This document shows positions 25,861 through 44,593 of a stretch of 64,000 bases of DNA, in pieces. Position numbers and translations under genes: made by a program. The DNA lies in contig URDT01000003.1 in NCBI GenBank assembly GCA_900546745.1, forward strand, positions 125-64,124. The letters run 5' to 3'. How positions within the stretch are numbered: the first letter of the stretch is position 1; the number at the start of each line of letters is the position of its first letter. This stretch comes from an uncultured Mycoplasmatota bacterium. GTDB taxonomy: Bacteria > Bacillota_I > Bacilli_A > RF39 > UBA660. Under the pieces are notes generated by a model. That model saw only the letters and a program-made list of their open reading frames with translations. It ran no database searches and was not told the DNA's origin.

Positions 25861-25934
25861 GCTGATATAGTATAAAGGTATTACGAGGCCATGGTAAGGC
25901 TTTAATCGGTGTTCAATTCACCGTATCAGCACCA
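25861..25934 (+). tRNA. tRNA-Thr (anticodon GGT)
   Basis: Hand fold: acceptor GCTGATA/TATCAGC, anticodon stem AGGCC/GGCTT with loop ATGGTAA, T-arm CGGTG-TTCAATT-CACCG, discriminator A, encoded CCA. Confidence 0.85.
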
Positions 25935-25980
25935 GATTGATAGGAAATTCGGACACATCCTGAGTTTAAGTAATAGATTA

Positions 25981-26005
25981 CTAACTAGAAATAGTTGGTT
26001 TTTTT
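25981..26005 (+). terminator. terminator supplied by the element for the tRNA-Thr transcript
   Basis: CTAACTA-GAAA-TAGTTGG hairpin followed by T7. Confidence 0.5.
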
Positions 26006-26038
26006 GTACTTAAATTTTGAAAGGATGAGTGATTATAT

Positions 26039-26311
26039 ATGTTAAATATTGAAACAAAAGAACTTATAATTAGTGAGAAATTAAAAAAGAAAGTTGATAT
26101 GATATGTAAGTTTGCTTGTGTTAAACCTACTTATCAAAATGGTAATGTAATTAATATAGTTAATTCTAATATCGCTTATGTTAAACCACATATAATAACT
26201 ATTAATAATATTAACTATTTAATGTTTGAAGAATGTGATGATATTTTTATAAATGGATTTTCTAAAAAAATTCAATTTAAAGATTTTGAACAATACATTA
26301 AATCAAACTAA
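26039..26311 (+). CDS. 90-aa element-end protein, paralog 1 (unknown function)
   Basis: Same length as the ORFs at 31026 and 42813 and alignable with them: IC-F, NG, Y-x-PH-I-I, Y-L-x-F, E-x-YIK. Confidence 0.7.
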   Translation: MLNIETKELIISEKLKKKVDMICKFACVKPTYQNGNVINIVNSNIAYVKPHIITINNINYLMFEECDDIFINGFSKKIQFKDFEQYIKSN

Positions 26312-26315
26312 CCTA

Positions 26316-26344
26316 TTGACTTTTAAATAAAAAATGATTATTAT
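26316..26344 (+). promoter_or_regulatory. promoter of the recombinase leader (copy 1)
   Basis: TTGACT-17 nt-TATTAT. The same motifs and spacing occur at 31302-31330. Confidence 0.6.
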
Positions 26345-26416
26345 AAATAACCAATAAATGACAAGCAGTATCCGTCTTTTATTAGAAAGCGAGGTACATC
26401 TATGGTCAAATACATA
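26339..26416 (+). repeat. 78-nt block 100 percent identical to 31325-31402
   Basis: Direct comparison of the two leaders. Covers the -10, a bulged hairpin, the SD and the first five uORF codons. Confidence 0.9.
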
Positions 26417-26479
26417 AATTATTTAAATAAAAATTATAAAGTTATTTCAAGAGGAGTCAAAGGTATTAGTTTGAACTAG
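26402..26479 (+). CDS. leader peptide uORF (25 codons), copy 1
   Basis: GAGGT SD 6 nt upstream. MVKYINYLNKNYKVISRGVKGISLN. Reads through the 5' arm of the terminator and stops 6 nt before the 3' arm. Confidence 0.55.
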   Translation: MVKYINYLNKNYKVISRGVKGISLN

Positions 26480-26501
26480 TGCTTTTGTCTCCTCTTTTTT
26501 T
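26449..26501 (+). terminator. intrinsic terminator / attenuator upstream of the serine recombinase (copy 1)
   Basis: AAGAGGAGTCAA ... TTGTCTCCTCTT (12 bp, one T.T mismatch) followed by a T-run, 22 nt before the recombinase ATG. Confidence 0.7.
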
Positions 26502-26508
26502 GATATGA

Positions 26509-28398
<1,890 letters not shown>

Positions 28399-28597
28399 TT
28401 TTGTTAACTTTTATCAAAAGTTATTTAACAAACGAACACGTTTTGTTGAAGTTCCTACTTCAATGAAAGTGAGTAAAGTTTGTTTAATAAATATAAATAA
28501 TAAATAGTATTTGTTATTTATATTTTAATAATTATCGAGGGACATTTTGTTTCTTTAGAAATAAAAGTTGCGATAGATAATTATTATAAAAAGGATT

Positions 28598-28670
28598 CTA
28601 AGGAATTATTCCTTAGCTCCCACATCTTGTTAGAATGACAAGATGTCTAGGGAGTTATACATCTTGACTA
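28598..28670 (+). promoter_or_regulatory. candidate oriT of the MobV relaxase
   Basis: Two inverted repeats (CTAAGGAAT-T-ATTCCTTAG; ACATCTTGT-TAGAATG-ACAAGATGT) and a repeated ACATCTTG directly upstream of mob. Nick site not identified. Confidence 0.4.
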
Positions 28671-28702
28671 GTAATTCAAGATACTTTTTAGGGAGGTATA
28701 AA

Positions 28703-30058
28703 ATGAACGAAAATCTATCTTATTCATTCCATATCGGTAATGATAAAAATAAAACTACAAAAGCAAAACAAGTATCAAAAGAAAGAACTATAAACTTTAA
28801 TAATAATGCTATTCAAAATGCTATACAATTATCAAAAGTAAATCATCATAACCTACGTGCATATGAAAATAATCCTGAACTAATAATGACTATTAAAGGA
28901 ACAAATGATATTGTTAAAGATATAAAAGAAGTATATATAGATGTGTTTGAAGAATCTAGAATTAACTACAATAATAAACAAACTCGTGATGATAGAAAAA
29001 TTCAAGATTATTTTTCTAAAATAGCAAATGATAATAGACATGATCTAGCAGTCGAAATTATTATTCAACTTGGTAATATGAATTATTGGGCTGATAAAAC
29101 TATAGAAGAAAAATATAAAATGACTGATGTATTTAAAAATCAAGTTAAAGAATTAGAAAAAATTGTTCCACTATTTAAGATAGCAAATGCTACTATACAC
29201 TTTGATGAATCTTCACCACACTTACATATAGTTGGTGTTCCAATAAAAGAAAATTGCAAAACCAGTATGAATAAACAAGTAGGAAAATCAGACGTGTTTA
29301 CTGTTGAAATATTGGAACTGATCCAAAATGAATTGAGAGAAAAATGTATAAATGATTTCAATAAATTATTTAATTTAGATAAAGAACTTAAAGAAAAAGA
29401 AAAAGGAAGAAATGAAGATTATAGAGTTAAACAAATGAATAATTATGAAAAATTAAAGGATTCATATAATAAGCAACATAAAAAGATAACTGAAATAAAT
29501 AAGAATGTTGATAAAATAAATAATAAATCAATCAAAGTAAAAGATATATTAGAAAATTTAAAACAACAACCCTTATCAAAAAATAACTTAATAATATCTT
29601 CTGATAAAAAAGATAAATTATTAGAATATATAAAAGATATTGATAAAAATAATAAAAATATGAAATCAATTACAAACTTTAATTTATCATTAAATGATAT
29701 AAAAAAAGATTTAGAAGAAAATCATGAAACCATTAGAGAATTATTAAACGAAAATGAAGATTTAAATGTTAAGTTAGAAGAAAAAGAAAGAATATTACAA
29801 GTATCAAAAAATACTATATCTGAATTAAAAAAGAAAATCTCTAATTTAGAAGAACAAGTTAATTATTGGAAGAATAAATTTACAAAAATTATAAGTCACA
29901 TTAAAGATAAAGTTCTTGGACTATTTGGAAAAGATGAAGAACACACATATAGAAATATAGCAAATGATTTATTTTTGAATAACAAAGTTTCTTATGAAGA
30001 TTACGAAAATATGTTGGGGAGAAATGTTAAAAACAAAGATGATGAACTTGATAGATAA
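28703..30058 (+). CDS. MobV / Pre family relaxase
   Basis: HFDESSPHLHIVGVP (HxDE..PHxH motif), long Lys/Glu/Asn coiled-coil C-terminus, GGGAGG RBS. Confidence 0.85.
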   Translation: MNENLSYSFHIGNDKNKTTKAKQVSKERTINFNNNAIQNAIQLSKVNHHNLRAYENNPELIMTIKGTNDIVKDIKEVYIDVFEESRINYNNKQTRDDRKIQDYFSKIANDNRHDLAVEIIIQLGNMNYWADKTIEEKYKMTDVFKNQVKELEKIVPLFKIANATIHFDESSPHLHIVGVPIKENCKTSMNKQVGKSDVFTVEILELIQNELREKCINDFNKLFNLDKELKEKEKGRNEDYRVKQMNNYEKLKDSYNKQHKKITEINKNVDKINNKSIKVKDILENLKQQPLSKNNLIISSDKKDKLLEYIKDIDKNNKNMKSITNFNLSLNDIKKDLEENHETIRELLNENEDLNVKLEEKERILQVSKNTISELKKKISNLEEQVNYWKNKFTKIISHIKDKVLGLFGKDEEHTYRNIANDLFLNNKVSYEDYENMLGRNVKNKDDELDR

Positions 30059-30140
30059 TTAACATTTTACAGAAAATTTGCAAATAATTATGAAATTTAA
30101 CGATTTTATGATATAATTCAATTGTACGGGAGGTATGAAA

Positions 30141-30767
30141 ATGGGAATACAAAATATTATAGAATTCTTTAATGGATTAGGAATTCAAATGTTAATAGAT
30201 GAAAACGGGAAAATGACTTTTATAGATACTAAATCTAATATAAAAATGAATGCTTTTTATACAAGAAATCCATTACCAATTTTAGGAAATGAAGATATGG
30301 ATTATGATATTAGTTTAGACAAGATTATGAGAGGTGGAAGAATAATTTCCAAATCAAGTGATTCTCATCTATCATTTAGAGTAACAAATCCAATTATAGA
30401 TAGAAAAAGAACTGATGATATAATAATTGATTATATGGAATATGCTACTGCCGAGAATGGTGTAGTAAATGAGGGTACAACTGTATCATTTGAAAACGGA
30501 AGAAATTCAAATGTTTCTATAGAAACAAATAATCAACAAGGTTATTCAAAATTAGTTATGTTCTCTGATGGACAAATAATGTTTTCAAAAGATGGAAAAG
30601 TTGGATATTATGATGAAGAATATGATTATTATCAATTAAGCGAACAAGAAATGAGAAATATATTAAGTAATAGTTCACTTGCTGTTTCATTATCTGATTA
30701 TTATTTGCCATTGTTTCCAAATATGAAAGAAAGTATTACAAATGCTTCAAAATCAAAATCTTTATAA
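30141..30767 (+). CDS. hypothetical cargo protein
   Basis: ORF behind a GGGAGG RBS with a terminator-like hairpin after it. No motif recognised. Confidence 0.55.
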   Translation: MGIQNIIEFFNGLGIQMLIDENGKMTFIDTKSNIKMNAFYTRNPLPILGNEDMDYDISLDKIMRGGRIISKSSDSHLSFRVTNPIIDRKRTDDIIIDYMEYATAENGVVNEGTTVSFENGRNSNVSIETNNQQGYSKLVMFSDGQIMFSKDGKVGYYDEEYDYYQLSEQEMRNILSNSSLAVSLSDYYLPLFPNMKESITNASKSKSL

Positions 30768-30814
30768 TAATTTAAGAGTAGTCTTACAATAGGCTACTTT
30801 TTTTATAAAAAGTA

Positions 30815-30843
30815 TTAACATTTTAAATTATGTATGTTAAAAT
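30815..30843 (+). promoter_or_regulatory. outward-facing promoter at the right end of element 1
   Basis: TTAACA-17 nt-TGtTAAAAT (extended -10), ending 6 nt before the conserved AGTTAGTAAG. Confidence 0.45.
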
Positions 30844-30849
30844 TAATTT

Positions 30850-30985
30850 AGTTAGTAAGTATTGCTTACTATCAACTTTTTGTCTAGAGGTTGTTCAACT
30901 ACAACCCCACAGGCACCATTGGCGAATCTGTTCGAACTATTCGAACTTTGATATATAGAATCAATCAGAAATGATTGATTTTTTC
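30850..30985 (+). ncRNA. candidate about 135-nt RNA spanning the attP-like junction (copy B)
   Basis: Lies between a promoter and a terminator. Hairpins AGTAAG/CTTACT, GGTTG/CAACC, GTTCGAA/TTCGAAC, and terminator AATCAATCA-GAAA-TGATTGATT plus T-run. Homologous unit at 42642-42778. Confidence 0.4.
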
Positions 30986-31025
30986 TTTTTATGAAAAAGT
31001 CAACCTAAAAGAAAGGTTGGTGTAT

Positions 31026-31298
31026 ATGATTAAAATTATTAAGGAAAAAATAGAAATTGAAGAATCATTAGAATCAAGATTAAAGATCATATGTGATTTT
31101 TGTAATACTACTCCAACAATAATAAACGGAAGTATTAGAAGAGTAGAACATACAAATCTTACTTATATTGAACCACATAGAATAATTATTAATGATAACT
31201 TATATCTTGCTTTTAATTACTCAAATGAAATATATATTAATAATTTAGGTAAGAAGATAAAACTATCTGAACTTGAAAACTATATAAAACAAGCGTAG
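31026..31298 (+). CDS. 90-aa element-end protein, paralog 2
   Basis: By my alignment, about three quarters identical to paralog 3 and about one third to paralog 1. Start at MIKIIKEK behind a GGTTGG RBS. Confidence 0.7.
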   Translation: MIKIIKEKIEIEESLESRLKIICDFCNTTPTIINGSIRRVEHTNLTYIEPHRIIINDNLYLAFNYSNEIYINNLGKKIKLSELENYIKQA

Positions 31299-31301
31299 GT
31301 C

Positions 31302-31330
31302 TTGACTTTTAAAATAAAAACTATTATTAT
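31302..31330 (+). promoter_or_regulatory. promoter of the recombinase leader (copy 2)
   Basis: TTGACT-17 nt-TATTAT. Confidence 0.6.
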
Positions 31331-31387
31331 AAATAACCAATAAATGACAAGCAGTATCCGTCTTTTATTAGAAAGCGAGGTACATCT

Positions 31388-31462
31388 ATGGTCAAATACA
31401 TATTTCATTTAAATAAAATTAATAATAGAAATATAAGAGGAGTCAAGAGTATTACTTGTTAA
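31388..31462 (+). CDS. leader peptide uORF (24 codons), copy 2
   Basis: Same SD and first five codons as copy 1. MVKYIFHLNKINNRNIRGVKSITC. Stop lies 6 nt before the terminator 3' arm. Confidence 0.55.
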   Translation: MVKYIFHLNKINNRNIRGVKSITC

Positions 31463-31484
31463 TGCTTTTGTCTCCTCTTTTTTC
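31435..31484 (+). terminator. intrinsic terminator / attenuator (copy 2)
   Basis: Arms identical to copy 1, loop 21 nt instead of 24, followed by a T-run. Confidence 0.7.
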
Positions 31485-31503
31485 GTAGAAAAAGGAGTGA
31501 TAA

Positions 31504-33442
<1,939 letters not shown>

Positions 33443-33444
<2 letters not shown>

Positions 33445-33583
33445 TAAAATACATAGTATATTTGGCGATAAAGATGATAAATATAAAGAAATGGCTGATA
33501 ATTTGTTTATAAATGGAATTATGGACGAAAAAGACTATACAAGTGTTATTAATAAAAAAAATCGTGATGATTTTGAGAGATAA
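33443..33583 (+). pseudogene. relic of a MobV relaxase C-terminus (46 codons)
   Basis: DKIHSIFGDKDDKYKEMADNLFINGIMDEKDYTSVINKKNRDDFER aligns with the last about 50 aa of the 28703 relaxase and of ORF 34831-35652. Confidence 0.6.
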
Positions 33584-33632
33584 AAGTATAAATTGTGTTA
33601 TAATTATTTTATAAGAAAGAGGTTGATTTTTA

Positions 33633-34868
33633 ATGATTAATTTGACAATAAATGACCTAACACAAGAAAATATTCTTGAACATCTTAATAAAACTGAAAA
33701 ATTATTAAGTAAAGTTGCAACTAAATTATCAAATAGTGAAAAAACCGCAACTATATATGCTATGCCAGATTTAGGAATAGCACAAAATGGAACTAGAATG
33801 ATAGGTGGTTTTTATACGGGTGCTTGTTATACCTGGAACAGTGATATTCCATTTATTCCTGTAGATGCAACTGTTAATGTTTGTGGAACAGCAGTTTATA
33901 AGTTAAATAAAAATATTACTAATGAAGAATTTATTGAAAGACTTAATAATGTTATGAATAATAGAAATACTTATTTAGATTTTGTAAATAAGTATTTACC
34001 TAAGGATGTTTTAAATTCAATTGATGTGAATGATGCTTCAAAATTTTTTTGGAATTATAACAAGGGTAATCATTTTGTAATCTTTGCTGAATCTGATGGG
34101 AAATATGGTTTAGAAGAAGGACAATATATGATTGTTCATGCTTCCGCAATAGAATTAAAAAAAGATAACTTAAAATATGGTTTATATCCTGTAAAAGGTA
34201 ACTGGTTTTATGATGATATAAAAACAGAATATGACGATGAGCATAAAAGATACATTAGATATATAACGGGAGAAAAAGCAAAGAAATTCTATGATATAGC
34301 AACGTATTTAAAGGAATTTAATAAAATACGGAATAAGTATTTTTGCCAAATTGTTTTAGGAGATTTAATGGAAAAAGAATTAATTAATATAAGCCATTAT
34401 GGTATGCCTACCATAAATTCGGTATGTATAGGTTGTCAATGGGAACAATTAGACTATACTCTTTTAACTGCACCTGGTAATGATGTGTTTTTAGTGCATC
34501 CTGAAATAAATCCAAATAATAAAAATTATATAAATTTACATGGTAAAAATATAACTTTAACACCGCATGGTTGCGGAGTAAGAATGAATAATCCAGAGGA
34601 TAAAATTGAATATTTTGATGGAGGACTAAGAATAGGTGACAATGTTTACATAATAGATGAAAGTGTAAATATAGGTGTAGATGTCTCTGTCAGAACAAAG
34701 AATATGACAAACGAAGAACTAGATAACCATATAAATAATATATTATCAAAATGTCCAGGAGAAATTTATGGACGATTAAGCCAAAAATTTGCAAGAACTA
34801 AATATGGTGATTTTAATTATAAAGAGGAATATGAAAATGCCAATAATAACATTTATAAGACACGCTGA
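33633..34868 (+). CDS. divergent RtcB-like protein (tentative)
   Basis: 411 aa with collinear RtcB-like motifs: AMPD, VDATVNVCGT, KGNHFVIF, MIVHAS, NISHYG, TPHGCGVR. Confidence 0.35.
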   Translation: MINLTINDLTQENILEHLNKTEKLLSKVATKLSNSEKTATIYAMPDLGIAQNGTRMIGGFYTGACYTWNSDIPFIPVDATVNVCGTAVYKLNKNITNEEFIERLNNVMNNRNTYLDFVNKYLPKDVLNSIDVNDASKFFWNYNKGNHFVIFAESDGKYGLEEGQYMIVHASAIELKKDNLKYGLYPVKGNWFYDDIKTEYDDEHKRYIRYITGEKAKKFYDIATYLKEFNKIRNKYFCQIVLGDLMEKELINISHYGMPTINSVCIGCQWEQLDYTLLTAPGNDVFLVHPEINPNNKNYINLHGKNITLTPHGCGVRMNNPEDKIEYFDGGLRIGDNVYIIDESVNIGVDVSVRTKNMTNEELDNHINNILSKCPGEIYGRLSQKFARTKYGDFNYKEEYENANNNIYKTR

Positions 34869-35652
34869 AACGGTTTATAATGATAATAAAATTTTTGCAG
34901 GTAGAATTGATTGCGAATTATCAAAAAAAGGAATACAAGATAAAATGAGAGTGTATTGTATTAATTCGTTCAATAGAATTTATCATTTAAACTACACTCT
35001 TAAAATAAAAGAAGAAGGAAGAAATGTTGATATTAATGTTGCAAATATGAATGAATATAAAAAGTTCAAACGAGAACAAGAAAAATATAAAAAGCAGCTT
35101 AAAGAATTAAATAATAAAACAGATGAATTACAGAATAAATCAAACGAAGTTAATGATATTATTGATAATCTAAAACCTACAATAATGAATAAAAACAACT
35201 TCAATATCTCTAATGAAGATATAGATAAAATTAAAAAATATATAGAACAGACTAATGATACTACTTCTAATTTAAGAGATGCAAATGATATAAATATAGT
35301 CTTAAAAAAATATGAAGATGATTTAAGAGAACATTCTAACGAAGTTAGAAACTTGAAAAAGAAGATAAAAACTCGTGATGATAGAATTGAAGAATTAGAA
35401 TATGACTTAAATGATGCAAATGAAACTATTGATGAATTAGAAGATAAAGTATCTAAATTAGAAGAAACATTAAAATATTTTAAAGAACTATGGAGCAAGT
35501 TTATTAAATTCTTACAAGATAAACTCTTCTATTCAAATAAGTATGATGATTTCATAAACGATTTATATAATGAAGATATAATTGATGATAGTGAGATAAA
35601 TATAATACAAAATAATTCTAAAAGTAAAGATGATTTTGAGAGAGATTTATAG
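34831..35652 (+). pseudogene. chimeric ORF: N-terminal about 35 aa of a histidine phosphatase fused to the C-terminal about 235 aa of a MobV relaxase
   Basis: MPIITFIRHAETVYN (RHxE motif) then, from about 34948, CINSFNRIYHLNYTLKIKEEGRNVD..., collinear with CINDFNKLFNLDKELKEKEKGRNED... of the intact relaxase. The relaxase catalytic domain is absent. Confidence 0.65.
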
Positions 35653-35726
35653 TAAACCATATCTAAATATAAGAAAATTTGTTATAATATTAATTAAGAA
35701 GAAAACTACTTATGGAGGTAATTAGT

Positions 35727-36215
35727 ATGGACTACAACATATCAAAAGCAAAAATAGAAGATCTAGATGCTATTCACAAATTAATATATGATAGCTGTTT
35801 ATGGTTTTCAGAAAAAGGAGTTAAATGATGGAATGTAGATTTCTACCCTAATAAATATGAAAAAAGTTATTTTATAGAGCAAATGAAAATAAATAAATTA
35901 TTTGTTGCAAAATTTAATAATAAAATATGTGGTGTTATGCTTTTAAAAGACAAAGATAAGGATTATTGGAATAATGATGATTCTTCTTATTATATTCATC
36001 ATTTAGCAACAGATATTAATTTAAAAGGTGTTGGCAAGACATTGATTAATTATGCAATTGAACAATGTAAAATAAATAATAAAATGTATTTAAGACTTGA
36101 TTGTTATCAAGAAAGTAAATTTCTTAATGAGCATTATGAGAAATTGGGCTTCAATATGGTTGGAAGTGGAACAGATGAAAATTATAATTTTAATTTATGG
36201 GAGATGAAAATATAA
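35727..36215 (+). pseudogene. GNAT acetyltransferase with an in-frame TGA at codon 34
   Basis: ATG at 35727 behind a GGAGG RBS, in frame with track ORF 35883-36215. TGA at 35826-35828 within ...SEKGVK*WNVDFYP. Confidence 0.65.
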
Positions 36216-36216
36216 T

Positions 36217-36783
36217 ATGAATACAATAGAATCAATAGAAAATAGAAGAAGTATTAGACTTTTTAAGAGTGATAATATCTCAAAAGAAATAGTTGAAGAT
36301 ATATTAAATTGTGGAAGGCTCGCTCCATCTGCAAAAAATAGACAACCATGGTATTTTGTAGTAACAAAAGGTAAAGTAAAAGATAAAATAGCAGATATGA
36401 TGATTGAGTATACTATAAATAATGATGATACCATTGAGAGAAAAAATTTAGGTTGTGCAAGTAGTGTTAATCCAACTGCAAATGTAATAAAACAAGCACC
36501 AATATTAGTTTTAATATTTAGAGAAAAAAACGATAATTGGATTATAGGAGATAATTTATCAATAGGTGCTTGTGTAGAAAATATGTGTTTAAGAGCAACA
36601 GAATTAGAAATAGGCACTTTATGGATTAGAGATACTGTATATGTTACAGAAGATGTGGCTAAAATGTTGAATCACGAAAATATGGAATTAAATTGCGCTT
36701 TAGCAATTGGATATGCAAATCAAAGTCCTAAACAAAGACCTAGAAAAGAATTAAAAGATATTGTGGAGTGGTATGATGAATAA
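36217..36783 (+). CDS. nitroreductase family protein
   Basis: RRSIRLF and APSAKNRQPW motifs. Confidence 0.8.
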   Translation: MNTIESIENRRSIRLFKSDNISKEIVEDILNCGRLAPSAKNRQPWYFVVTKGKVKDKIADMMIEYTINNDDTIERKNLGCASSVNPTANVIKQAPILVLIFREKNDNWIIGDNLSIGACVENMCLRATELEIGTLWIRDTVYVTEDVAKMLNHENMELNCALAIGYANQSPKQRPRKELKDIVEWYDE

Positions 36784-37666: not shown

Positions 37667-38408
37667 TAATTTTTGATAAAATGTATTTGATTATTTATAA
37701 AAGTAGCATGAATTTATTGCTGCTTTTTTCATATTTTGCTAAACTATATGTAGTGATTGATTCTTATATCAATTATTGTATTAAAAGTTGTAGATAACTA
37801 TGACAATAGCACCAAATTGATACTAAACTCCAACTACAAAAGTTCGAGCTTCTAAATACCTAAATTTATGATACAATATTTCTAAATTTGAATGGTGGTT
37901 ATGGTAATGAAATTATTAGGAGAAGATTTAGAAAGGATAAATTTCTTATACAAAAATTTATTAGAGTTATTAAAACAAAAATTTATACTAAATAATAATT
38001 TAAATCTTAAAAATGCTTTAGAATTTATTAATTACTTTTAAAACTACTTTATTACTTCTAGAAGGATATTACTGAGACATAGTGTCATATTTTAATACTA
38101 AATCATGTTATACTAAGAAAGTAGTATTGTTTTTGAAATCTAATTGAATAATCAATTACAATGTGATACTATGAATTTTGATATTCATCGTGAAAATAGA
38201 AGAGTTTAGGTTCTATTTATAAGATTACTTTTATAGAAGAAAATCTTTATCTGAATATGAGTAAGATAAAGTAAAAATAAAAAAATATAATCAGAATTTA
38301 AGAATAGATAATTATTCTACTTTTTTCATCGGAAAGTAGTTTTATATACTTGTATATGATTAAGTAAATAGAATAATTTTAAAAAAAGTAGTAAGACCTT
38401 TTTAAATA

Positions 38409-39176
38409 TTATTTTTTTAAAATTTTTATTTTATTATTTGTAGATAAATTTTTTGCTATAAAAGAATAAAAACTATCTTCTTCTAAGTTTCCTAAATTGT
38501 AATGATCCATATCTATGTAGCTACCGTCACCTTGTGTTGTAATGTCACCTTTTGAAGTGATATAAAAATAATTGAAAAATAAATAAGAATTGGAATCTAA
38601 TTTTTCTATTTCGATAGTTTTATTTTCAAAATTAAAGTATTTTCCAAAATAAAAATTTTCTTTTGCTTTACCACTAAGAATGATTTCATCTTCTAATTCA
38701 TCTAGCGTACCTGTTTTTTGAAAATTAATTTTGTCAGAGAGATATTTATATTTTTCTATTATTTTGGGATCATAATTATGAAACTGATCATTGGAAAATA
38801 TGATTCCAACAGAATTACTAATATCATTACTTTGATATAACTCGGGAAATTTTTTAAGACAATACTCTTGGTACTTTAAAAGATTGGAGATTAATTTCTC
38901 ATCATATATTGTTGCATTTGTATTGAATCCAATTGAAAAAACAAAAAGATTTTCTTCTATAATTTTATTGATGGCATATATAATTGCTTGAGTGTTGAGT
39001 AATGGCTCTCCACCACTGAAAAAGAGTTTATAGATATAATGATTACACTTTAATAATAAATCGATGTATCTATAATCAATATCAATATTTTGACAATCTC
39101 CTCGCATACAATGTTTACAGTTTAAATTACAACGTCTTGTGACTTCAATAGTAATATTTTTTAAAATTATGTTCAT
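38409..39176 (-). CDS. short radical SAM protein (no SPASM or auxiliary-cluster Cys motifs seen)
   Basis: CNLNCKHC (CxxxCxxC) near the N-terminus and FFSGGEPLL. Start at MNIILKN behind an AAGAGG RBS. Confidence 0.75.
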   Translation of the reverse strand: MNIILKNITIEVTRRCNLNCKHCMRGDCQNIDIDYRYIDLLLKCNHYIYKLFFSGGEPLLNTQAIIYAINKIIEENLFVFSIGFNTNATIYDEKLISNLLKYQEYCLKKFPELYQSNDISNSVGIIFSNDQFHNYDPKIIEKYKYLSDKINFQKTGTLDELEDEIILSGKAKENFYFGKYFNFENKTIEIEKLDSNSYLFFNYFYITSKGDITTQGDGSYIDMDHYNLGNLEEDSFYSFIAKNLSTNNKIKILKK

Positions 39177-39390
39177 ATTAAAACCTCTTTGGTTATGATA
39201 ACAAAAACAAGACATAAAATCAATTGTAGATAATTAATTTATAGTGACTTTATAGTTAAAAATTGATATAATGAACACATAGATAATCATATAAATAATA
39301 ATTTAAATAATAATTAACTTTTAATAAAGTTTCAATTGTTTAAGAGGTAAAATTATTTATTATGGGATAATAAAAGAGGAGATTACAAAT

Positions 39391-40203
39391 ATGAAAGATT
39401 GTCATGTACACACAAATATCAGTCACGATGGAATATCATCAATAAAAGATTATTTAGATATTGCTCAATCTAAAAATGTAGATGAGATAACATTTACAGA
39501 ACATTATGATATATATGATGGATTAAAAACAAATCTAAAAACGTTAGATGTGAATCAATATGAAAAAGAATATTATCAGTGTAAAGATGATGATCAGTTA
39601 AAAACTAATTTTGGTATCGAAATTGGATTACAACCTGATACTTACACTCAAATTAACAATATGGTAAAATCTCATCATTTCGATTTTATAATTGGTTCAT
39701 CTCATATTACTTGTAAAAAGGATATTGCTATGGATAAAAGTTTTTTTGATGGTATTACAAGGAGAGAAGCATATTTAAAATATTTTAGAGAAGTTTTACA
39801 AAATATAAAATTATATAATGATGAATTTGATGTTTATGGACATATCGATTATATAGTAAGATATGGTGGATATGCTGAAAAGAAAATAGATTATGATGAA
39901 TTTCAAGAAATATTGGATGAAATTTTAATTCAATTAATAAAAAAAGATAAAGGAATAGAAATAAATACCTCAGGTATTAGATACGGATTAGGAATGCCTC
40001 ATCCAAATAAAGAAATTATCAAAAGATATAAACAATTAGGAGGAAAAATTATTACAATGGGCTCTGATGCTCATAAAATTAATGATTTAGGAGCAGACTT
40101 TGATGTCGCAGGTTCTATTTTAATGGATGCCGGTTTTCAAGAAATATCAGTATTTCATAATAGAACTCCTGATTTTGTTAAAATAAAAGAACTTGTTAAG
40201 TAA
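39391..40203 (+). CDS. PHP-family histidinol-phosphatase-like protein (HisJ type)
   Basis: CHVHTNISHDG N-terminal HxH motif, later His/Asp motifs (GSSH, GHIDY, GSDAH), about 270 aa. Confidence 0.75.
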   Translation: MKDCHVHTNISHDGISSIKDYLDIAQSKNVDEITFTEHYDIYDGLKTNLKTLDVNQYEKEYYQCKDDDQLKTNFGIEIGLQPDTYTQINNMVKSHHFDFIIGSSHITCKKDIAMDKSFFDGITRREAYLKYFREVLQNIKLYNDEFDVYGHIDYIVRYGGYAEKKIDYDEFQEILDEILIQLIKKDKGIEINTSGIRYGLGMPHPNKEIIKRYKQLGGKIITMGSDAHKINDLGADFDVAGSILMDAGFQEISVFHNRTPDFVKIKELVK

Positions 40204-40295
40204 AAAATTAGTATAGGTCTAACTAAATATTCAAATTCTGTCTAAAACATATTTGAAATATTTTGAATACGATATATAATGTGTTAGGTGGTTAT

Positions 40296-40787
40296 ATGAA
40301 TCAAAAATTAAATTTTGAAAAGGCAGAAATTAGGGATTTAGATGAAATATTAAACTTATATTTAGAAAGATCCAATTGGTTTAAGGAAAATCAGATTAAA
40401 CAATGGAGCAATTATTTGAAAAGTCATCCTGTAGCCGATTTTGAAAAAGCAATTCGTACACAAAATTATTATGTTATGCGTGATCATGGAACGATTATAG
40501 CTGGGTTTGAACTATCAACAGATAGTAAACTTTGGAAAGAGAAATCAGAAGATGTTTACTATATTCGTAAAGTCGTTACAAAAGTAGGATATAAAAATAT
40601 AGGTTCTCTTATTTTTGATAAATGTAAGGAAATTGCTGCATCAAATAATAAACATTATTTAAGATTAGAGTGTATCAAATCCAACAACAAATTAAATGAA
40701 ATTTATGAAAATTATAATTTTAAGTGGATTCGTTATTGTAATGATGGATTATGCCATTTTTCATTACGAGAATTAAAGATTAATTAG
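40296..40787 (+). CDS. GNAT family N-acetyltransferase
   Basis: RKVVTKVGYKNIGSLIFDKCKEIA acetyl-CoA-binding-like segment. Similar N-terminus to the 35727 GNAT. Confidence 0.7.
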   Translation: MNQKLNFEKAEIRDLDEILNLYLERSNWFKENQIKQWSNYLKSHPVADFEKAIRTQNYYVMRDHGTIIAGFELSTDSKLWKEKSEDVYYIRKVVTKVGYKNIGSLIFDKCKEIAASNNKHYLRLECIKSNNKLNEIYENYNFKWIRYCNDGLCHFSLRELKIN

Positions 40788-40814
40788 TAAAAAATTATCG
40801 TAAGTAATTATAAA

Positions 40815-41595
40815 TTGAAAAAAGTAAGTGTCCGTTTAGGACATAAAAAAGACACATAGATTTACCTATGGTACAATGTAAGTGCGAACTAAACATTGGA
40901 GGTGATAAATATGTGTCTTTTAAATTATAACAAAGAAAACAAAAAATATAAACATTTAACTTATACAGAAAGAACAATGATAGAAAGATGGTATAACAGA
41001 GAACATTTGAGTAGTAAAGAAATTGCCCAAAGATTAGATAAAAGTGAGAGGACTATTAGAAGAGAGCTTAAGCGTGGTCTAACAACTATTTTAAATACTT
41101 ATTTAGAAGAAATAGAGGAAGTGTGCTTTTGACTTTTACAGAAAGAATGACACGAGAAGAAATAATTATAAAAATAAAAGGAAAAAATAATGAGTATGTA
41201 GTCAAAGCAATAAATGGTCTTGAAAGAAAACATGAAAAGTCATTTTATAGTAAATTTAAAACAATAACATTTGATAATGGAGTGGAATTTATGGATTATA
41301 AAGGAATTGAACAATCTTGTTTAAAAAAAGGAAAAAGAACAAAAGTATATTATGCACATCCATATTGTTCAGGAGAAAGAGGTAGTAATGAAAATAACAA
41401 TAGAATGATTAGAAGATGGATTCCAAAAGGAACGATAATAGATAATATAACAACTAAACATATTAAAGAGATAGAGAATTGGTTAAATAATTATCCAAGA
41501 GCGATGTTTGATTATAAAAGTTCAAATATGTTATTATATAAATATATAAAAAACTTGCATTTTAGGTAATGAAATGTGTGGACACTTAATATTTC
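40815..41595 (+). mobile_element. IS30-family element relic with an internal deletion
   Basis: Terminal inverted repeat core TAAGTGTCC (40825-40833 and complement of 41580-41588). Encloses transposase fragments only. Confidence 0.6.
40911..41569 (+). pseudogene. IS30 transposase fragments (HTH N-terminus plus C-terminal part of the DDE domain)
   Basis: LTYTERTMIERWY...SERTIRRELKRG (HTH), then TFDNGVEF and ERGSNENNNRMIRRWIPKG. The region holding the first catalytic Asp is missing. Two overlapping frames. Confidence 0.7.
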
Positions 41596-41688
41596 CATTT
41601 ATATTTTTAATTATTTAAACTAATAACTATTGAAAAAAATATAAAAAAAGAGTATTATAATAAACTAACTAAAAAGGAGTGAAAAAAT

Positions 41689-42588
41689 ATGATTATACCA
41701 CAAGGATATGAATACAATCATGATAAAGAAATATCTAATGAAGAATATGAAGTAATTAATAAATTTTTAGAATTTTATAGAAATAAACCTGTTATTGTTG
41801 CTGATGAATATAGGCAAGATTTTGATATGGTTCCATTAGAAGAAGAAAAAATAATTTTTAAAACTGATGATGATGTATTCAAATGTGTCGATTTTTGTAG
41901 AAAAATTTATTATAAAAATAAACCTTATATAATAGAATTAGGATTATGGCGTATAAGTCATAATGAAACAGAGCCAAAATGTTTACAAATTAATAAGTTT
42001 AAAATTATTACTAAAGGTAAAGTTCATTTCATTGATTTGAATTTAGATAATTGTTCAAATAGAAGAATTCTATTTAATATTATGAGTATTTTTGATGAAA
42101 CGAAGATAATTTCTCCAGAACAGGCTTATTGTAACAAAATGTATACAAACAAAGTATTACAAGATTTTTTAACAAATCATGAGTGGGAAAATATTGATAA
42201 AGGAATTCAACAAATGCCTTCATTAGCGAATGCTTTATTTATTATAAGAGATGGATATGAAACATGCAGTCATTACACAGCGGATTTTGCTACAATATTG
42301 TATCAATTAATTGATTTTAGAACACATAATTTAGGTAGTTTAATTAAGGATGAAAAAGATTTAAATGAGTTAGATAAATTAATATTAAAATTAAGTAGAA
42401 CAAGTTTATTGAAGGTCCAATTACATGAACAAACAAGTGGGATTAAATCTTATCCAACTAGATCAATATTATTAGATTATAATTATTATGACGGAAGGAT
42501 GCATAAATCAACGCAATATAATGTAGATAATACAGAATTATCAACTGAAAATGGTATTTTGAAAAAACTAGTTAAAAATAATAAATGA
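41689..42588 (+). CDS. hypothetical cargo protein
   Basis: 299-aa ORF behind an AAGGAG RBS. No motif recognised. Confidence 0.55.
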   Translation: MIIPQGYEYNHDKEISNEEYEVINKFLEFYRNKPVIVADEYRQDFDMVPLEEEKIIFKTDDDVFKCVDFCRKIYYKNKPYIIELGLWRISHNETEPKCLQINKFKIITKGKVHFIDLNLDNCSNRRILFNIMSIFDETKIISPEQAYCNKMYTNKVLQDFLTNHEWENIDKGIQQMPSLANALFIIRDGYETCSHYTADFATILYQLIDFRTHNLGSLIKDEKDLNELDKLILKLSRTSLLKVQLHEQTSGIKSYPTRSILLDYNYYDGRMHKSTQYNVDNTELSTENGILKKLVKNNK

Positions 42589-42606
42589 AAATTGTGGTAA
42601 TATATA

Positions 42607-42635
42607 TTGCTACTTTTTTTATGTTCTAGTATAAT
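42607..42635 (+). promoter_or_regulatory. outward-facing promoter at the right end of element 2
   Basis: TTGCTA-17 nt-TATAAT, ending 6 nt before the conserved AGTTAGTAAG, the same spacing as copy B. Confidence 0.45.
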
Positions 42636-42641
42636 GTAATT

Positions 42642-42778
42642 AGTTAGTAAGTTTATTACTTACTATCATCTTTTTGCTTAGGAGTTGTTTGACCTGCTCC
42701 TTACTGGCACCATTGACGAATCTGTTCGAACTATTCGAGTTTTTATATATGAATCAATCATTTCTGATTGATTTTTTT
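42642..42778 (+). ncRNA. candidate about 135-nt RNA spanning the attP-like junction (copy C)
   Basis: Hairpins AGTAAG/CTTACT, AGGAG/CTCCT, GTTCGAA/TTCGAG, and terminator AATCAATCA-TTTC-TGATTGATT plus T-run. Confidence 0.4.
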
Positions 42779-42812
42779 GTTGTATTAGAAAAATCATAGA
42801 AAGGATTTGTCT

Positions 42813-43085
42813 ATGGTAAATATTATTAAAGAAGAAATTGAAATTGAAGAATCTTTAGAATCGATGTTAAGAGTAATATGTGATTTTTGTAATACTATTC
42901 CAATAATAATAAATGGAAGTATTAGAAGAATTGATAAAACTAATCTTATTTATATAGAACTACATAGAATATATATTAAAAACAATTTATATCTATCATT
43001 TAATTATTCAAGTGATATATACGTTAATAACCTAGGTAAGGAGATTAAATTATCAGAACTTGAAGATTATATAAAACAAGCATAG
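42813..43085 (+). CDS. 90-aa element-end protein, paralog 3
   Basis: MVNIIKEEIEIEESLESMLRVICDFCNT..., 90 aa, close homolog of paralog 2. Confidence 0.7.
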   Translation: MVNIIKEEIEIEESLESMLRVICDFCNTIPIIINGSIRRIDKTNLIYIELHRIYIKNNLYLSFNYSSDIYVNNLGKEIKLSELEDYIKQA

Positions 43086-44516: not shown

Positions 44517-44593
44517 GACCTGTTGGTGAAGTGGCTTAACACGCTGCCCTCTCAAGGCAGTATTCGTGGGTTCGAAACCCATACAGGTTACCA
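44517..44593 (+). tRNA. tRNA-Glu (anticodon CTC)
   Basis: Hand fold: acceptor GACCTGT/ACAGGTT (G1.U72), anticodon stem CTGCC/GGCAG with loop CTCTCAA, T-arm GTGGG-TTCGAAA-CCCAT, ACCA end. Overall close to Firmicute tRNA-Glu apart from C34. Confidence 0.75.

Follow-up and report, generated by a model that had tools for sequence, protein, structure and literature searches.

A probable recombination half-site with a predicted outward promoter at the seam of two tandem integrative mobilizable elements behind a tRNA-Thr gene

Introduction

What separates two neighbouring mobile elements when the DNA between them resembles at once a recombination site, a transcription unit and part of a tRNA? The question is raised by positions 30815-30985 of the window, the whole stretch of 64,000 nt analysed here (GCA_900546745.1, contig URDT01000003.1, positions 125 to 64,124, forward strand), which comes from an uncultured Mycoplasmatota bacterium (Bacillota_I; Bacilli_A; RF39; UBA660) with a genome G+C content of 25%. 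The original prediction described an attP-like junction embedded in a promoter-to-terminator unit, and we found all of its parts (promoter, hairpins, ACCA and terminator) where it had placed them. We propose, with a probability of roughly 0.7, that the region is the seam of two tandemly integrated mobilizable elements (IMEs) with a large serine recombinase, and that it carries a recombination half-site together with an outward promoter reading across the joint.

The att sites of serine integrases such as those of LI/A118, Bxb1 and phiC31 are built from four half-sites arranged with imperfect dyad symmetry about a crossover of 2 bp; recombination partners need the same central dinucleotide, and a change in it alters which sites pair. 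In attP-type half-sites the zinc-ribbon-domain motif reportedly lies about 5 bp further out than in attB-type half-sites. To our knowledge, known serine integrases use one chromosomal attB, usually inside a gene. The acceptor/T-arm minihelices of tRNA are substrates of RNase P and of the CCA-adding enzyme. IMEs with serine recombinases have been described as inserting inside genes, with tRNA 3' ends being the territory of tyrosine integrases (PMC5704250).

Results

At least four elements in tandem behind the tRNA-Thr gene

The original prediction had counted two elements. We found that the array behind tRNA-Thr consists of at least four IMEs in tandem, with a further right end at 37749-37814, and that the array elements share a gene set of a 90-aa ORF, a large serine recombinase and a MobV relaxase (ORFs, Pfam, PHROG). 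The layout is as follows.

25861..25934, +, tRNA-Thr(GGT), the occupied target, whose 3' end ..GCACCA is the left (B) arm of the first junction (ARAGORN; Rfam tRNA, 58.6 bits)
25935..26012, +, left arm of element 1 (P', sub-family F2; sequence, fold), with the GATTGATAGGAAATTCGGACACATCCTGAG hairpin, an AGTAAT/ATTACT hairpin and the predicted terminator AACTA-GAAA-TAGTT followed by a T-run
26039..30767, +, gene block of element 1 (ORFs)
26039-26311, +, 90-aa ORF of element 1
26524-28398, +, large serine recombinase of element 1 (Pfam Resolvase, Recombinase and Zn_ribbon_recom)
28643-30058, +, Mob_Pre/MobV relaxase of element 1 (Pfam)
30135-30767, +, 210-aa ORF of element 1
30778..30808, +, predicted terminator closing the last gene of element 1, AGTAGTC..GGCTACT then T7 (sequence)
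31026..33444, +, genes of element 2, direct repeats with element 1 (ORFs)
31026-31298, +, 90-aa ORF of element 2
31507-32292 and 32341-33444, +, broken large serine recombinase of element 2 (ORFs)
37749..37814, +, right end of element 2, a type II unit (nhmmer 1.9e-17; fold), with a TGcTAAACT box, the hairpin GTGATTGATT..ATCAATT, GTTGTAG-ATAA-CTATGAC and AGCACCA
37815..42609, +, third unit, comprising the remnant of an F2-like left arm (AATTGATACTAAACTCCAAC..), cargo and decayed genes
42610..42712, +, copy C, a second type I right-end unit, with TTGCTA-17-TATAAT, hairpin 1, the mimic AGGAGT/GCTCCT and GGCACCA
42713..43085, +, fourth, truncated element, an F1 left arm with terminator and a 90-aa ORF

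The recombinase of element 1 matched PF00239 at 1e-34, PF07508 at 2e-19 and a PHROG integrase at 2e-113, and PF13408 at only 22.8 bits, which is under the 25.3-bit cut-off. For the recombinase of element 2, the Pfam matches were confined to the N-terminal piece. The genes of the third unit include radical SAM, PHP and GNAT genes, pieces of an IS30-like transposase and a 299-aa ORF. The 90-aa, 210-aa and 411-aa ORFs had no match in Pfam or PHROGs, and a blastn search of 30760-31300 against the PLSDB plasmids returned no match. ARAGORN called four tRNAs in the window, none of them at 30850-30918, and Rfam at the gathering threshold returned the same four and no other meaningful family. When 30700-31100 was searched in Rfam at E up to 10, there was no tRNA match, and the best hit was the SpF03 sRNA with 27 bits against a gathering score of 50 bits.

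A chimeric joint between two element ends

The ACCA at 30915-30918 divides the region. Everything on its left (30815-30918) is the right end of element 1, and what follows on its right (30919-30990) is the left end of element 2, a member of another sub-family than element 1.

30815..30843, +, predicted outward promoter, TTAACA-17-TGtTAAAAT, with the -35 box TTAACA at 30815-30820 and the -10 box with upstream TG ending at 30843 (promoter scan, direct reading)
30850-30859, +, AGTTAGTAAG (sequence)
30853..30871, +, hairpin 1 (type I: TTAGTTAGTAAG..CTTACTA), stem AGTAAG/CTTACT at 30854-30870 (fold)
30882..30914, +, mimic of the tRNA top half (fold)
30889-30906, +, inner hairpin 2 of the mimic, GGTTGT-TCAACT-ACAACC
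30882-85 with 30911-14, +, outer stem of the mimic, GTCT/AGGC
30913..30918, +, GC-A-CCA core common to the mimic and the target tRNA
30919..30946, +, left arm of element 2 (P', F1), TTGGCGAATCT then GTTCGAAC-TA-TTCGAAC
30930-30946, +, hairpin 3, GTTCGAA-CTA-TTCGAAC
30959..30990, +, predicted intrinsic terminator of the F1 left arm, AATCAATCA-GAAA-TGATTGATT then a T-run, hairpin at 30959-30980 (sequence, fold)

Because the two halves come from two element sub-families, element 1 (F2/type I) contributing the P arm and element 2 (F1) the P' arm, the unit is a chimera and not the attP of a single element. The proposed attP-like P-arm/P'-arm joint between two tandem elements was supported, but the idea that circularisation would rebuild it was not, as neither element would rebuild 30815-30985. 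Hairpin 3 and the terminator belong to the left arm, and in a single-copy insertion they would serve the tRNA gene and not the mimic, with the terminator ending the tRNA transcript.

The unit did not arise by chance. A second copy in the window, at 42654-42791 within the recurrence at 42610-42791, is 79% identical, and nhmmer found copies in related loci; a conserved block ATTGCTACTTTTTT lies upstream of most right-end units (nhmmer). The resemblance of the mimic to the 3' part of tRNA-Thr (25907-25934) also proved real, with 22 identical columns in an alignment that contains 4 gaps, and only 1 of 2000 shuffles in which the ACCA was kept reached its score. The mimic has no T-loop, the loops in relatives being 4-8 nt long and in most types without TTCRA. 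A position profile of 100 P arms showed that the conserved motif RGTTGT sits within the mimic.

Left arms directly follow CCA ends in related loci

Two scans reported roughly 480 relatives, and 160 loci were analysed. In these loci the left arm always lay directly after the CCA of a tRNA or tmRNA gene or of another element's mimic. Conservation began exactly after the CCA in the 178 left junctions, 82 of F1 and 96 of F2 (the type of element 1). The F1 junctions adjoined tRNA-Leu (28), Thr (16), Arg (3), Phe (1) and tmRNA (12), and the F2 junctions adjoined Gly (29), Cys (2) and Leu/Thr/tmRNA (15); the others adjoined mainly non-tRNA units ending in G-C-N-CCA, plus a few uncalled tmRNA/tRNA ends. 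About half of the F2 left junctions adjoined another element. Since about 110 of the 178 left junctions adjoin a called tRNA or tmRNA ending in CCA, the genuine tRNA indeed occupies the place of the mimic in the integrated state, as the original prediction held. The targets comprise at least six tRNA species (Leu, Thr, Arg, Phe, Gly and Cys) and tmRNA, and insertion leaves the tRNA gene unsplit.

At the right ends, nhmmer found 28 distinct type I copies and more than 60 of other types in the 160 loci, and every right-end match (45 + 47) had the orientation of the element genes. Of 155 pairs of recombinases with at least 95% identity, 54 had their members at different RNA genes, and we infer mobility because the same element, by this measure, occupies different RNA genes. 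A terminal-overlap test found no circular contigs among the loci. As in a large-serine-recombinase att site, a recombinase with Resolvase and Recombinase domains is encoded beside the site, the identity between the partners is very short, and the element sequence starts abruptly at the junction. The tRNA arms and the mimic arms have nothing but (G)C-N-CCA in common.

The discriminator base and the crossover

The discriminator base was uniform within each array: among 67 loci, 41 were all-A, 26 were all-T and none was mixed. The recombinase of element 1 is 96-97% identical to those of three loci at tRNA-Gly (CTCCA; L082-L084), in which the P arm ends in GGCTCCA, and the P arm of element 1 ends in GGCACCA. 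Because the base flips between A and T in elements whose recombinases are 96-97% identical, the crossover probably includes the discriminator. Its position is thus probably at or adjoining base 30915, at or just before the point marked in the original prediction.

The G of GTTCRA was at -24 in all 87 tRNA arms. In the P arms (n = 100), the G of GTT was at -28 in 61% and the T at -27 in 94%, and G-6 and C-5 were 94-98% conserved. The G of GTT is at -24 in tRNA arms versus -28/-29 in P arms, and on the other strand of P' it can be read at +19/+20 and +28. The F1 arm (30919..30946) was almost invariant in the 82 junctions. Judged from motif positions, the putative half-site geometry would fit a centre near C72/N73. 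A half-site role fits because RGTTGT, GC-N-CCA and GTTCGAAC are conserved in sequence at fixed distances.

We propose that the mimic would act as the P half-site of the recombinase and would carry the cues of a tRNA 3' third, namely the T-loop GTT, C72, the discriminator and the CCA. Its distal GTT cue would lie 4-5 bp further out, as in attP-type versus attB-type half-sites of serine integrases. The 2-bp crossover would include the discriminator base, and a one-base change in the mimic would then re-target the element from A73 RNAs (Thr, Leu, Arg, Phe and tmRNA) to U73 tRNAs (Gly and Cys).

A predicted outward promoter and proposed state-dependent expression

The putative promoter at 30815..30843 matches the consensus at 10 of 12 positions and has the upstream TG, and hairpin 1 would form the 5' end of the predicted transcript. 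Promoter-like hexamers are common in this A+T-rich genome (104 found by scanning versus 94 expected). Among 96 distinct right-end units, 60 had an extended -10 box TGnTAnn[AC]T, compared with 5.4% of random windows, and 81 matched the -10 box at five or more of six positions; the extended box lies 64-77 nt before the CCA end. The promoter-like element singled out earlier is thus strongly conserved among relatives, and both the right-end promoter and the terminator are called from consensus and conservation. In relatives, the 3' half (TTGCTA) of the terminator of the last gene is also the -35 box. The similarity of the tRNA-Thr promoter and the unit promoter seen in a three-way MAFFT alignment of junctions was rejected as homology, being just two ordinary extended -10 boxes.

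The F1 terminator has a stem of 9-11 bp, a GAAA loop and T5CT5, and is kept in F1 left arms. An automated terminator scan passed over the hairpin at 30959-30980 only because its stem has 2 G-C pairs and the scan demands a minimum of 3; with this A+T-rich stem the terminator may be leaky. Inside the F1 left arm there is a weak promoter-like match, TTGATA-16-AATGAT (30948-30975), and scanning of the sequence between the P' terminator and the 90-aa ORF gave no strong promoter match. A conserved promoter-like site (TTGACT-17-TATTAT at 26316 and 31302) belongs to the recombinase gene itself, so that the right-end promoter is not obviously needed for the recombinase.

The right-end promoter would give state-dependent expression. 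In an element integrated alone, the tRNA promoter would read into the P' terminator, and only read-through would reach the 90-aa ORF. In a circular element, or in one that lies behind another, the right-end promoter would read over the joint into the same attenuator. Hairpin 1, which is kept in the 28 distinct type I units, has a stem that repeats that of the F2 left-arm terminator; holding a copy of the terminator 3' strand, it may act as an anti-terminator. In the minimum-energy fold of two same-family joints, the 5' strand of hairpin 1 paired with the 5' strand of the terminator, and in the in-silico joint of element 2 itself the local hairpins were retained. The co-transcriptional order, with hairpin 1 made first, also works against a long-range anti-terminator. 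A 7-bp pairing of CTATCAA (30870-30876) with TTGATAG of the element 1 left arm is absent in the other family and was put down to chance. An oriT role for hairpin 1 (TAGTG) was also unsupported, because the relaxase gene has a separate upstream inverted repeat (28598-28616).

Folding of the right-end unit

The 141-nt stretch folded better than 200 of 200 dinucleotide shuffles (z = -4.0), and the second copy in the window gave z = -3.5. Over 96 units, the mean fold z was -2.0 on the plus strand and -1.5 on the minus strand (Wilcoxon p = 0.002). Pairing between linker and tail was stronger within a unit than after swapping (-4.0 versus -2.3 kcal/mol, p = 2e-4), and the difference held for 41 clusters (-3.97 versus -3.25, p = 0.0045); in a stricter swap test, only 3 of the 41 clusters had their own pairing ranked first in the row. 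Two near-identical units (L007 and L070:12244) differ by a change from C-G to U-A in the outer stem, and across units the hairpins persist while stem sequences and register differ.

RNAalifold on a MAFFT alignment of the 28 type I units returned no consensus structure, since the register of the hairpins shifts against the conserved RGTTGT. For 34 type II units, a column-wise count gave 87% paired cells, no double-sided changes and nothing above shuffles. A cloverleaf reading, in which the 5' GTGATTG of type II pairs with the 3' CAATCGC, was dropped since it holds in one sub-type only. Like the acceptor/T-arm minihelices of tRNA, the mimic consists of a roughly 10-13-bp hairpin, in many cases two-tiered, with a single-stranded NCCA behind it; unlike them, it has a loop that is not a T-loop and a variable register.

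It appears that the shape of a minihelix-NCCA transcript is probably selected at the single-strand level, and an RNA role for the unit is plausible from these folds. Because the hairpins survive changes of sequence and register, the folds show a modest plus-strand bias and the promoter is conserved, we argue that the half-site is probably transcribed as well. The original prediction had set an RNA and recombinase half-sites against each other; the two probably apply together, not as an either/or.

Discussion

One rival reading is a pure DNA site, made of terminal inverted repeats and binding sites for the recombinase and accessory proteins, in which the hairpins would be by-products of palindromic protein sites and of the likeness to a tRNA gene, and the promoter box would go unused. 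In its favour, TGATTGATTCT(T)ATATCAA and AAAGTT occur at similar distances both in the P arm and in the reverse complement of P', the conservation of hairpin 3 and RGTTGT is one of sequence and not of covariation, and serine integrase att sites are in general imperfect inverted repeats. Yet the extended -10 box at a fixed distance, with its excess over random windows, is difficult to account for unless the unit is transcribed, the stretch of the P arm that varies (-20 to -7) pairs with different partners in different sub-types, and a duplex protein site would not predict that the plus strand folds better than the minus strand; we consider a site of DNA alone unlikely. It is also improbable that the unit is a free-standing small RNA gene whose position at the att site is secondary. 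Its 65-70-nt product, a 5' hairpin and an acceptor/T-arm minihelix ending in NCCA, could be a substrate or decoy for RNase P, the CCA-adding enzyme, EF-Tu or a tRNA-directed nuclease. The conserved promoter, the plus-strand bias, the swap tests and the frequent G-C to G-U changes in stems all suit such a gene, as does the end of the hairpin, which falls 0-3 nt before the NCCA across unit types despite differing stems and register. On the other hand, the best-conserved positions are motifs at a fixed distance from the junction (RGTTGT, G-6, C-5 and CCA), and the discriminator of the mimic tracks that of the target tRNA, as site recognition predicts and a free RNA does not. Rfam at E up to 10 gave no meaningful match, tRNA included, and ARAGORN called nothing there, column-wise covariation was absent, and some relatives (L062:1765 and L075:5898) have a mimic without promoter or hairpin 1.

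Hairpins in single-stranded DNA after conjugative transfer, serving as a single-strand origin or priming signal as in rolling-circle plasmids mobilised by MobV, would agree with the MobV relaxase that the elements encode, with the strand bias of the structure and with the free hairpin register expected of a generic folded-DNA signal, but they leave a promoter of the double-stranded type and the target-dependent GC-N-CCA unexplained and are very improbable. It is hardly credible that the mimic is a tRNA gene in decay, or a tRNA 3' fragment displaced and left as a direct repeat in the manner of tyrosine-integrase islands. The ACCA end and the 22 aligned bases common with the 3' part of tRNA-Thr would suggest it, and it is already contradicted: neither ARAGORN nor Rfam called a tRNA, the same sequence with T73 lies beside tRNA-Gly and tRNA-Cys (L081 and L082), the mimic travels with the element right end in the 28 distinct copies, the recombinase is a serine and not a tyrosine enzyme, and the target gene is unsplit. 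A search with 30-mers, allowing up to 3 mismatches, for a repeated tRNA fragment found only the site itself. A bolder extension of the transcribed half-site, which we regard as doubtful, is that the right end encodes an RNA of about 65-70 nt in which a cis anti-terminator hairpin, acting on joined ends, is combined with a tRNA-like minihelix-NCCA, so that the RNA would sense whether the element is excised or integrated while its DNA remains the half-site with a programming discriminator. In this two-part RNA, hairpin 1 would work only with the ends joined, in a circle or a tandem array, and RNase P and the 3'-end machinery would handle the minihelix-NCCA.

The transcribed half-site that we favour resembles a known promoter switch in its anatomy. 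In ICEKp1, int is transcribed from the tRNA-Asn promoter in the integrated state and from a promoter at the 3' end after excision; the 5'-UTR contains stem-loops that work as a terminator, whose effect is relieved by 15 bp of the 3' end (PMC13023037). As in ICEKp1, ICEclc and ICEEc1 (Liu et al., NAR 2026, PMC13023037), the element lies at a tRNA 3' end and displaces the tRNA terminator, the first gene is just downstream in the same orientation behind terminator-like stem-loops, and a promoter at the far end would read over attP once the element is circular. The tRNA promoter, the terminator-like 5'-UTR and the end promoter thus appear to match the ICEKp1 type. The far-end sequence that relieves the terminator in those elements would have its counterpart here in the predicted role of hairpin 1. 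The differences are also clear. Those elements are large and conjugative with a tyrosine integrase, whereas ours are 5-7 kb and mobilizable with a large serine recombinase; the far end here mimics a tRNA 3' third with the same NCCA ending; and the first gene is the 90-aa ORF, not the integrase.

In gene content the closest likeness is to Tn4451/Tn4453, small clostridial-type IMEs with the large serine recombinase TnpX and the MobV relaxase TnpZ (PMC5704250). They are excised as a circle, and the circle joint supplies the promoter of the recombinase (Lyras & Rood 2000, as cited in PMC13023037). Judged by domain content, our elements likewise have one large serine recombinase and a Mob_Pre relaxase. 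However, Tn4451 ends in GA dinucleotides and shows low target specificity, and each of its ends supplies part of the joint promoter, whereas the present elements target the CCA end of tRNA/tmRNA genes and have the promoter wholly in the right end. With CCA-linked ends and specific RNA-gene-end targets, the elements do not fit the Tn4451/Tn4453 pattern. Like tyrosine-integrase islands (Islander, PMC4383910) and tycheposons (bioRxiv 10.1101/2020.12.28.424599), they use tRNA and tmRNA genes as safe sites, form tandem arrays by repeated integration and have tRNA-like fragments at their ends. When those islands integrate, the gene is split and then made whole by an identical copy, and a true tRNA fragment stays behind as a direct repeat. 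Here insertion does not disturb the gene, the shared sequence is confined to (C)NCCA, and the element brings a non-identical mimic as its end fragment. Unlike known serine integrases, one enzyme (copies at least 95% identical) appears at many RNA genes, by way of features that all tRNAs have.

Taken together, these elements form a widespread and apparently undescribed family in gut bacteria; the literature searched contained no description of serine recombinases at tRNA CCA ends, which does not in itself prove that there is none. A serine-recombinase family that inserts at tRNA CCA ends without cutting the gene contrasts with the reviewed pattern of IMEs (PMC5704250), and it has built long tandem arrays in small-genome gut Bacilli. 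If the discriminator lies in the crossover, one base of the element would set the target class, a natural case of targeting programmed by the dinucleotide, and one integrase would recognise a structural class of genes and not a single locus, which would be of interest for integrase engineering. The outward promoter and the match between hairpin 1 and the terminator would carry the recently described 'promoter switch' logic over from ICEs to small elements with a serine recombinase. For annotation, the 65-nt units ending in NCCA mark element boundaries precisely.

The unit at the junction of elements 1 and 2

Elements 1 and 2 are tandem integrative mobilizable elements (IMEs) behind tRNA-Thr, and the original prediction placed a promoter-to-terminator unit with a mimic of the tRNA 3' half at their junction. 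Sequence reading, promoter scan and folding recovered every listed part of the unit.

Parts of the unit, all within 30815-30990
promoter TTAACA-17-TGtTAAAAT (promoter scan)
AGTTAGTAAG and hairpin 1 (sequence, fold)
inner hairpin GGTTGT/ACAACC, GTCT/AGGC closing it, then ACCA (sequence, fold)
hairpin 3, GTTCGAA-CTA-TTCGAAC (sequence, fold)
terminator with a 9-bp A+T-rich stem, GAAA loop and T-run (sequence, fold)

The unit folds with z = -4.0, better than 200 of 200 shuffles, in a window of 25% G+C. The likeness of hairpin 2 and its tail to a tRNA 3' end also held: 22 columns align with the 28 nt at the 3' end of tRNA-Thr (25907-25934), and an equal score was reached in just 1 of 2000 shuffles. 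Neither ARAGORN nor Rfam called a tRNA at the mimic, even at E = 10.

The tandem array

The predicted tandem arrangement was found, and it extends beyond two elements: 25935-43085 holds at least four units, with right ends at 30918, 37814 and 42712. No right-end unit that could mark the outer right boundary was found between 43085 and tRNA-Glu at 44517.

Features of the array
25861-25934: tRNA-Thr(GGT), with the array directly downstream
25935-30918: element 1; 90-aa ORF, 624-aa large serine recombinase, Mob_Pre relaxase, 210-aa ORF
30919-37814: element 2; 90-aa ORF, recombinase in two pieces, relaxase remnants, cargo (GNAT gene, nitroreductase, transglutaminase-like gene)
ending at 37814: right-end unit of a second type (nhmmer)
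37815-42712: third unit, with decayed genes and cargo; terminates in a second copy of the predicted unit, 79% identical
from 42713: fourth element, truncated

The recombinase gene of element 2 (31507-33444) is split into ORFs of 261 and 367 aa and is probably a pseudogene. Its relaxase survives as remnants at 33428-33583 and 34789-35652, the second fused to a histidine-phosphatase-like start. Within the third unit, two neighbouring ORFs (40896-41569) resemble fragments of an IS30-type transposase, with an HTH_38 domain in the first and no Pfam match for the second.

The 90-aa ORF (26039-26311, 31026-31298, 42813-43085) is always downstream of the left-arm terminator. The copies in elements 1 and 2 are homologous (36% identity), with no match in Pfam or PHROG; C23, P30, N34-G35, H51 and a C-terminal YIK motif are conserved, and the product is a candidate directionality factor or regulator. 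No other DNA is as well conserved between elements 1 and 2 as the 210-nt spacer separating this ORF from the recombinase gene (26299-26471, 31285-31457; 85% identical). The spacer contains TTGACT-17-TATTAT and a long hairpin at 26458-26487, and may be a regulatory region.

Left junctions in related loci

Scanning one genome per species with the 90-aa ORF gave 361 relatives, the nearest to the window being uncultured gut Bacilli/'Tenericutes'-type genomes, and a metagenome scan with the ORF of element 1 gave 122; 80 loci were retained from each, many of them from metagenome bins. A terminal-overlap test picked out no circular contig among them. In all retained loci, conserved element sequence starts right after a CCA. 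The left (P') arms form two sub-families, F1 (CCA followed by TTGRCGAATCTGTTCGAACTATTCGAAC...AATCAATCA-GAAA-TGATTGATT, then a T-run) and F2 (CCA followed by GATTGATAGGAAACTCG..., hairpins, CTAACTA-GAAA-TAGTTAG, then a T-run). As predicted for the integrated state, a called tRNA or tmRNA replaces the mimic left of the CCA in many junctions.

Left partners at 82 F1 and 96 F2 junctions
tRNA-Leu: F1 28; F2 part of 15 (Leu/Thr/tmRNA together)
tRNA-Thr: F1 16; F2 part of the same 15
tmRNA: F1 12 called; F2 part of the same 15
tRNA-Arg(CCU): F1 3; F2 -
tRNA-Phe: F1 1; F2 -
tRNA-Gly: F1 -; F2 29
tRNA-Cys: F1 -; F2 2
no tRNA/tmRNA call (mainly mimic units): F1 22; F2 50

The tmRNA gene ssrA is a frequent target across the 160 related loci. 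U73-type ends (..CTCCA) belong to elements at tRNA-Gly and tRNA-Cys, A73-type ends to elements at Thr, Leu, Arg, Phe and tmRNA genes.

Right-end units and the chimeric seam

The non-tRNA units left of CCA are element right ends. Nhmmer found 45 and 47 of them, always in gene orientation; some flank an element on its outer side and others adjoin the next left arm. Their layout, 5' to 3', is the last gene's terminator tail, an extended -10 box, a 5' hairpin, an RGTTGT hairpin and G-C-N-CCA. Type II right ends (hairpin GTGATTGATT..ATCAATC) pair with F1 left arms and type I right ends (TTAGTTAGTAAG, the predicted unit) with F2 left arms, as seen for all four window units. The seam at 30918/30919 is therefore a chimera of a type I right end and an F1 left arm, which arose by tandem insertion. 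The expectation that the same unit is rebuilt across attP in the circle thus failed; the circle of element 1 would join 30815-30918 to 25935-26012.

Of 96 distinct units, 60 have TGnTAnn[AC]T within the 44-nt stretch where it is expected, compared with 5.4% of random windows. A -10 box matching at least 5/6 is present in 81 of the 96, ending 64-77 nt upstream of CCA, and in many units a -35 box TTGCTA (spacer 17) lies within the 3' half of the preceding terminator. Most units, folded singly, form a 5' hairpin at the predicted start, followed by a helix of 10-13 bp in one or two tiers that stops 0-3 nt short of NCCA. The inner stems differ by type (GGTTGT/ACAACC, AGGAGT/GCTCCT, AGAAGT/ACTTCT, GTTGTAG/CTACGAC), as do the outer stems (GTCT/AGGC, CCTAAA/TTTAGG, GCGAA/TTCGC, GCCGA/TCGGC). 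A C-G to U-A change separates two otherwise near-identical units (L007 and L070:12244). The units fold better than shuffles, and better on the plus strand (mean z -2.0) than on the minus strand (-1.5; p = 0.002); p-values here are optimistic because related copies are not independent. In swap tests, the linker of a unit paired better with its own tail than with those of other units; a stricter test was weak (-3.97 vs -3.25 kcal/mol). RNAalifold found no consensus structure in a MAFFT alignment of 28 type I units, as the hairpin shifts its register against the fixed RGTTGT, and a column count in type II units gave no double-sided change and nothing above shuffles. We conclude that the plus strand appears to retain a generic hairpin beside NCCA; an exact RNA architecture does not emerge from these tests.

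Target recognition and crossover

Among 155 pairs of recombinases with at least 95% identity, 54 pairs sit at different RNA genes, such as tRNA-Arg and tmRNA, or Leu, Phe and Thr. Thus, one enzyme reads features that the 3' thirds of tRNAs share. Across 87 distinct tRNA/tmRNA arms, the G of the T-loop GTTCRA is always at -24 from the CCA end (87/87), and conservation of C72 reaches 99%. The 100 mimic arms conserve G-6 and C-5 at 94-98% and have an A-run before GTT, whose G is usually at -28 (-29 in the window copy); on the opposite strand of the left arms, GTTCGA begins at +19/+20. Such spacing is consistent with a centre near C72/N73, from which the cues of P (mimic) and P' would lie about 23-24 bp away and the tRNA cue about 19 bp. 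Serine integrases tell attP-type from attB-type half-sites by the offset of the distal cue, and by analogy the difference seen here would be such an offset.

The left junction of an element has a different pair of bases past CCA from its right junction (TC/CT in L053, TT/GA in L023, TT/TA in L073), and exchange therefore falls within (C)NCCA. The discriminator, base N73 before CCA, was all-A in 41 and all-T in 26 loci with at least two junctions, and mixed in none. The recombinase of element 1 is 96-97% identical across all 624 residues to those of L082-L084, whose elements are inserted behind tRNA-Gly (..CTCCA). Right ends were sequenced for two of these near-identical elements, L081 and L082, and carry the same mimic, ending GGCTCCA where that of element 1 ends GGCACCA. 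On the simplest reading, the crossover dinucleotide would include the discriminator, and one mimic base would set the usable tRNA class.

A proposed promoter switch and rival readings

Experiments on ICEKp1 demonstrated a state-dependent promoter switch, and one has been proposed for ICEclc (PMC13023037). In ICEKp1, the tRNA terminator is displaced on integration and transcription from the tRNA promoter into the element crosses terminator-like stem-loops; after excision, a far-end promoter reads across attP, and 15 bp of the far end relieve the terminator (PMC13023037). The anatomy of the window elements, read from sequence like every function proposed here for them, matches this switch. The left arm would give a terminator directly behind the tRNA, and the right end the promoter. 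No strong promoter match lies between the left-arm terminator and the 90-aa ORF, the sole candidate being a weak 9/12 match at 30948-30975.

In both sub-families, the stem sequence of hairpin 1 recurs in the terminator of the matching left arm, and in the same-family joints of L070 and L023 the minimum-energy fold pairs the 5' strand of hairpin 1 with that of the terminator. The repeat could equally be a protein-binding terminal inverted repeat, and co-transcriptional folding favours local hairpins; an anti-terminator role for hairpin 1 is therefore kept as a hypothesis.

We read the mimic first as the putative P half-site of the recombinase. Rival readings take the unit as a free-standing tRNA-like sRNA, as a purely DNA-level site or as a signal in single-stranded DNA following conjugation; the data contradict a further reading, a decayed tRNA.

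Serine-recombinase IMEs are described as inserting within genes, and tyrosine-integrase IMEs at tRNA 3' ends (PMC5704250). In our literature search, no description turned up of serine recombinases aimed at the CCA ends of many tRNA/tmRNA genes through a tRNA-mimicking arm; the logic of the parts (end promoters, serine att sites, arrays at tRNA genes) is known.

Other right ends

Solo mimics (AAAGTTGTTGAACGTCC..TTAGGGCACCA) lacking hairpin 1 and the -10 box occur at L062:1700-1765 (directly 3' of an ORF's stop codon), L075:5830-5898, L076:5840-5901 and L070:10200-10264; they may represent the right ends of a different kind of element, or units that have decayed. At least six more right-end types, each behind a TATAAT-like box, occur in L087-L157. 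One of these types is ..TAGAAAGAGAGCGAGTTCGTAAGATG..CCGCTCCA, with a canonical-looking T-arm in L130 (ACAAG-TTCGTAA-CTTGT), and another is ..GTGCAAAACCCCATCAGTAATCGCACCA. At boundaries between a right end and apparently native DNA (L012:12031-12075, L009:11105-11150), a displaced terminator-like hairpin comes next, e.g. CCCTTGTATATCAAGGG then a T-run, and the right-end promoter would yield a short pseudo-pre-tRNA transcript.
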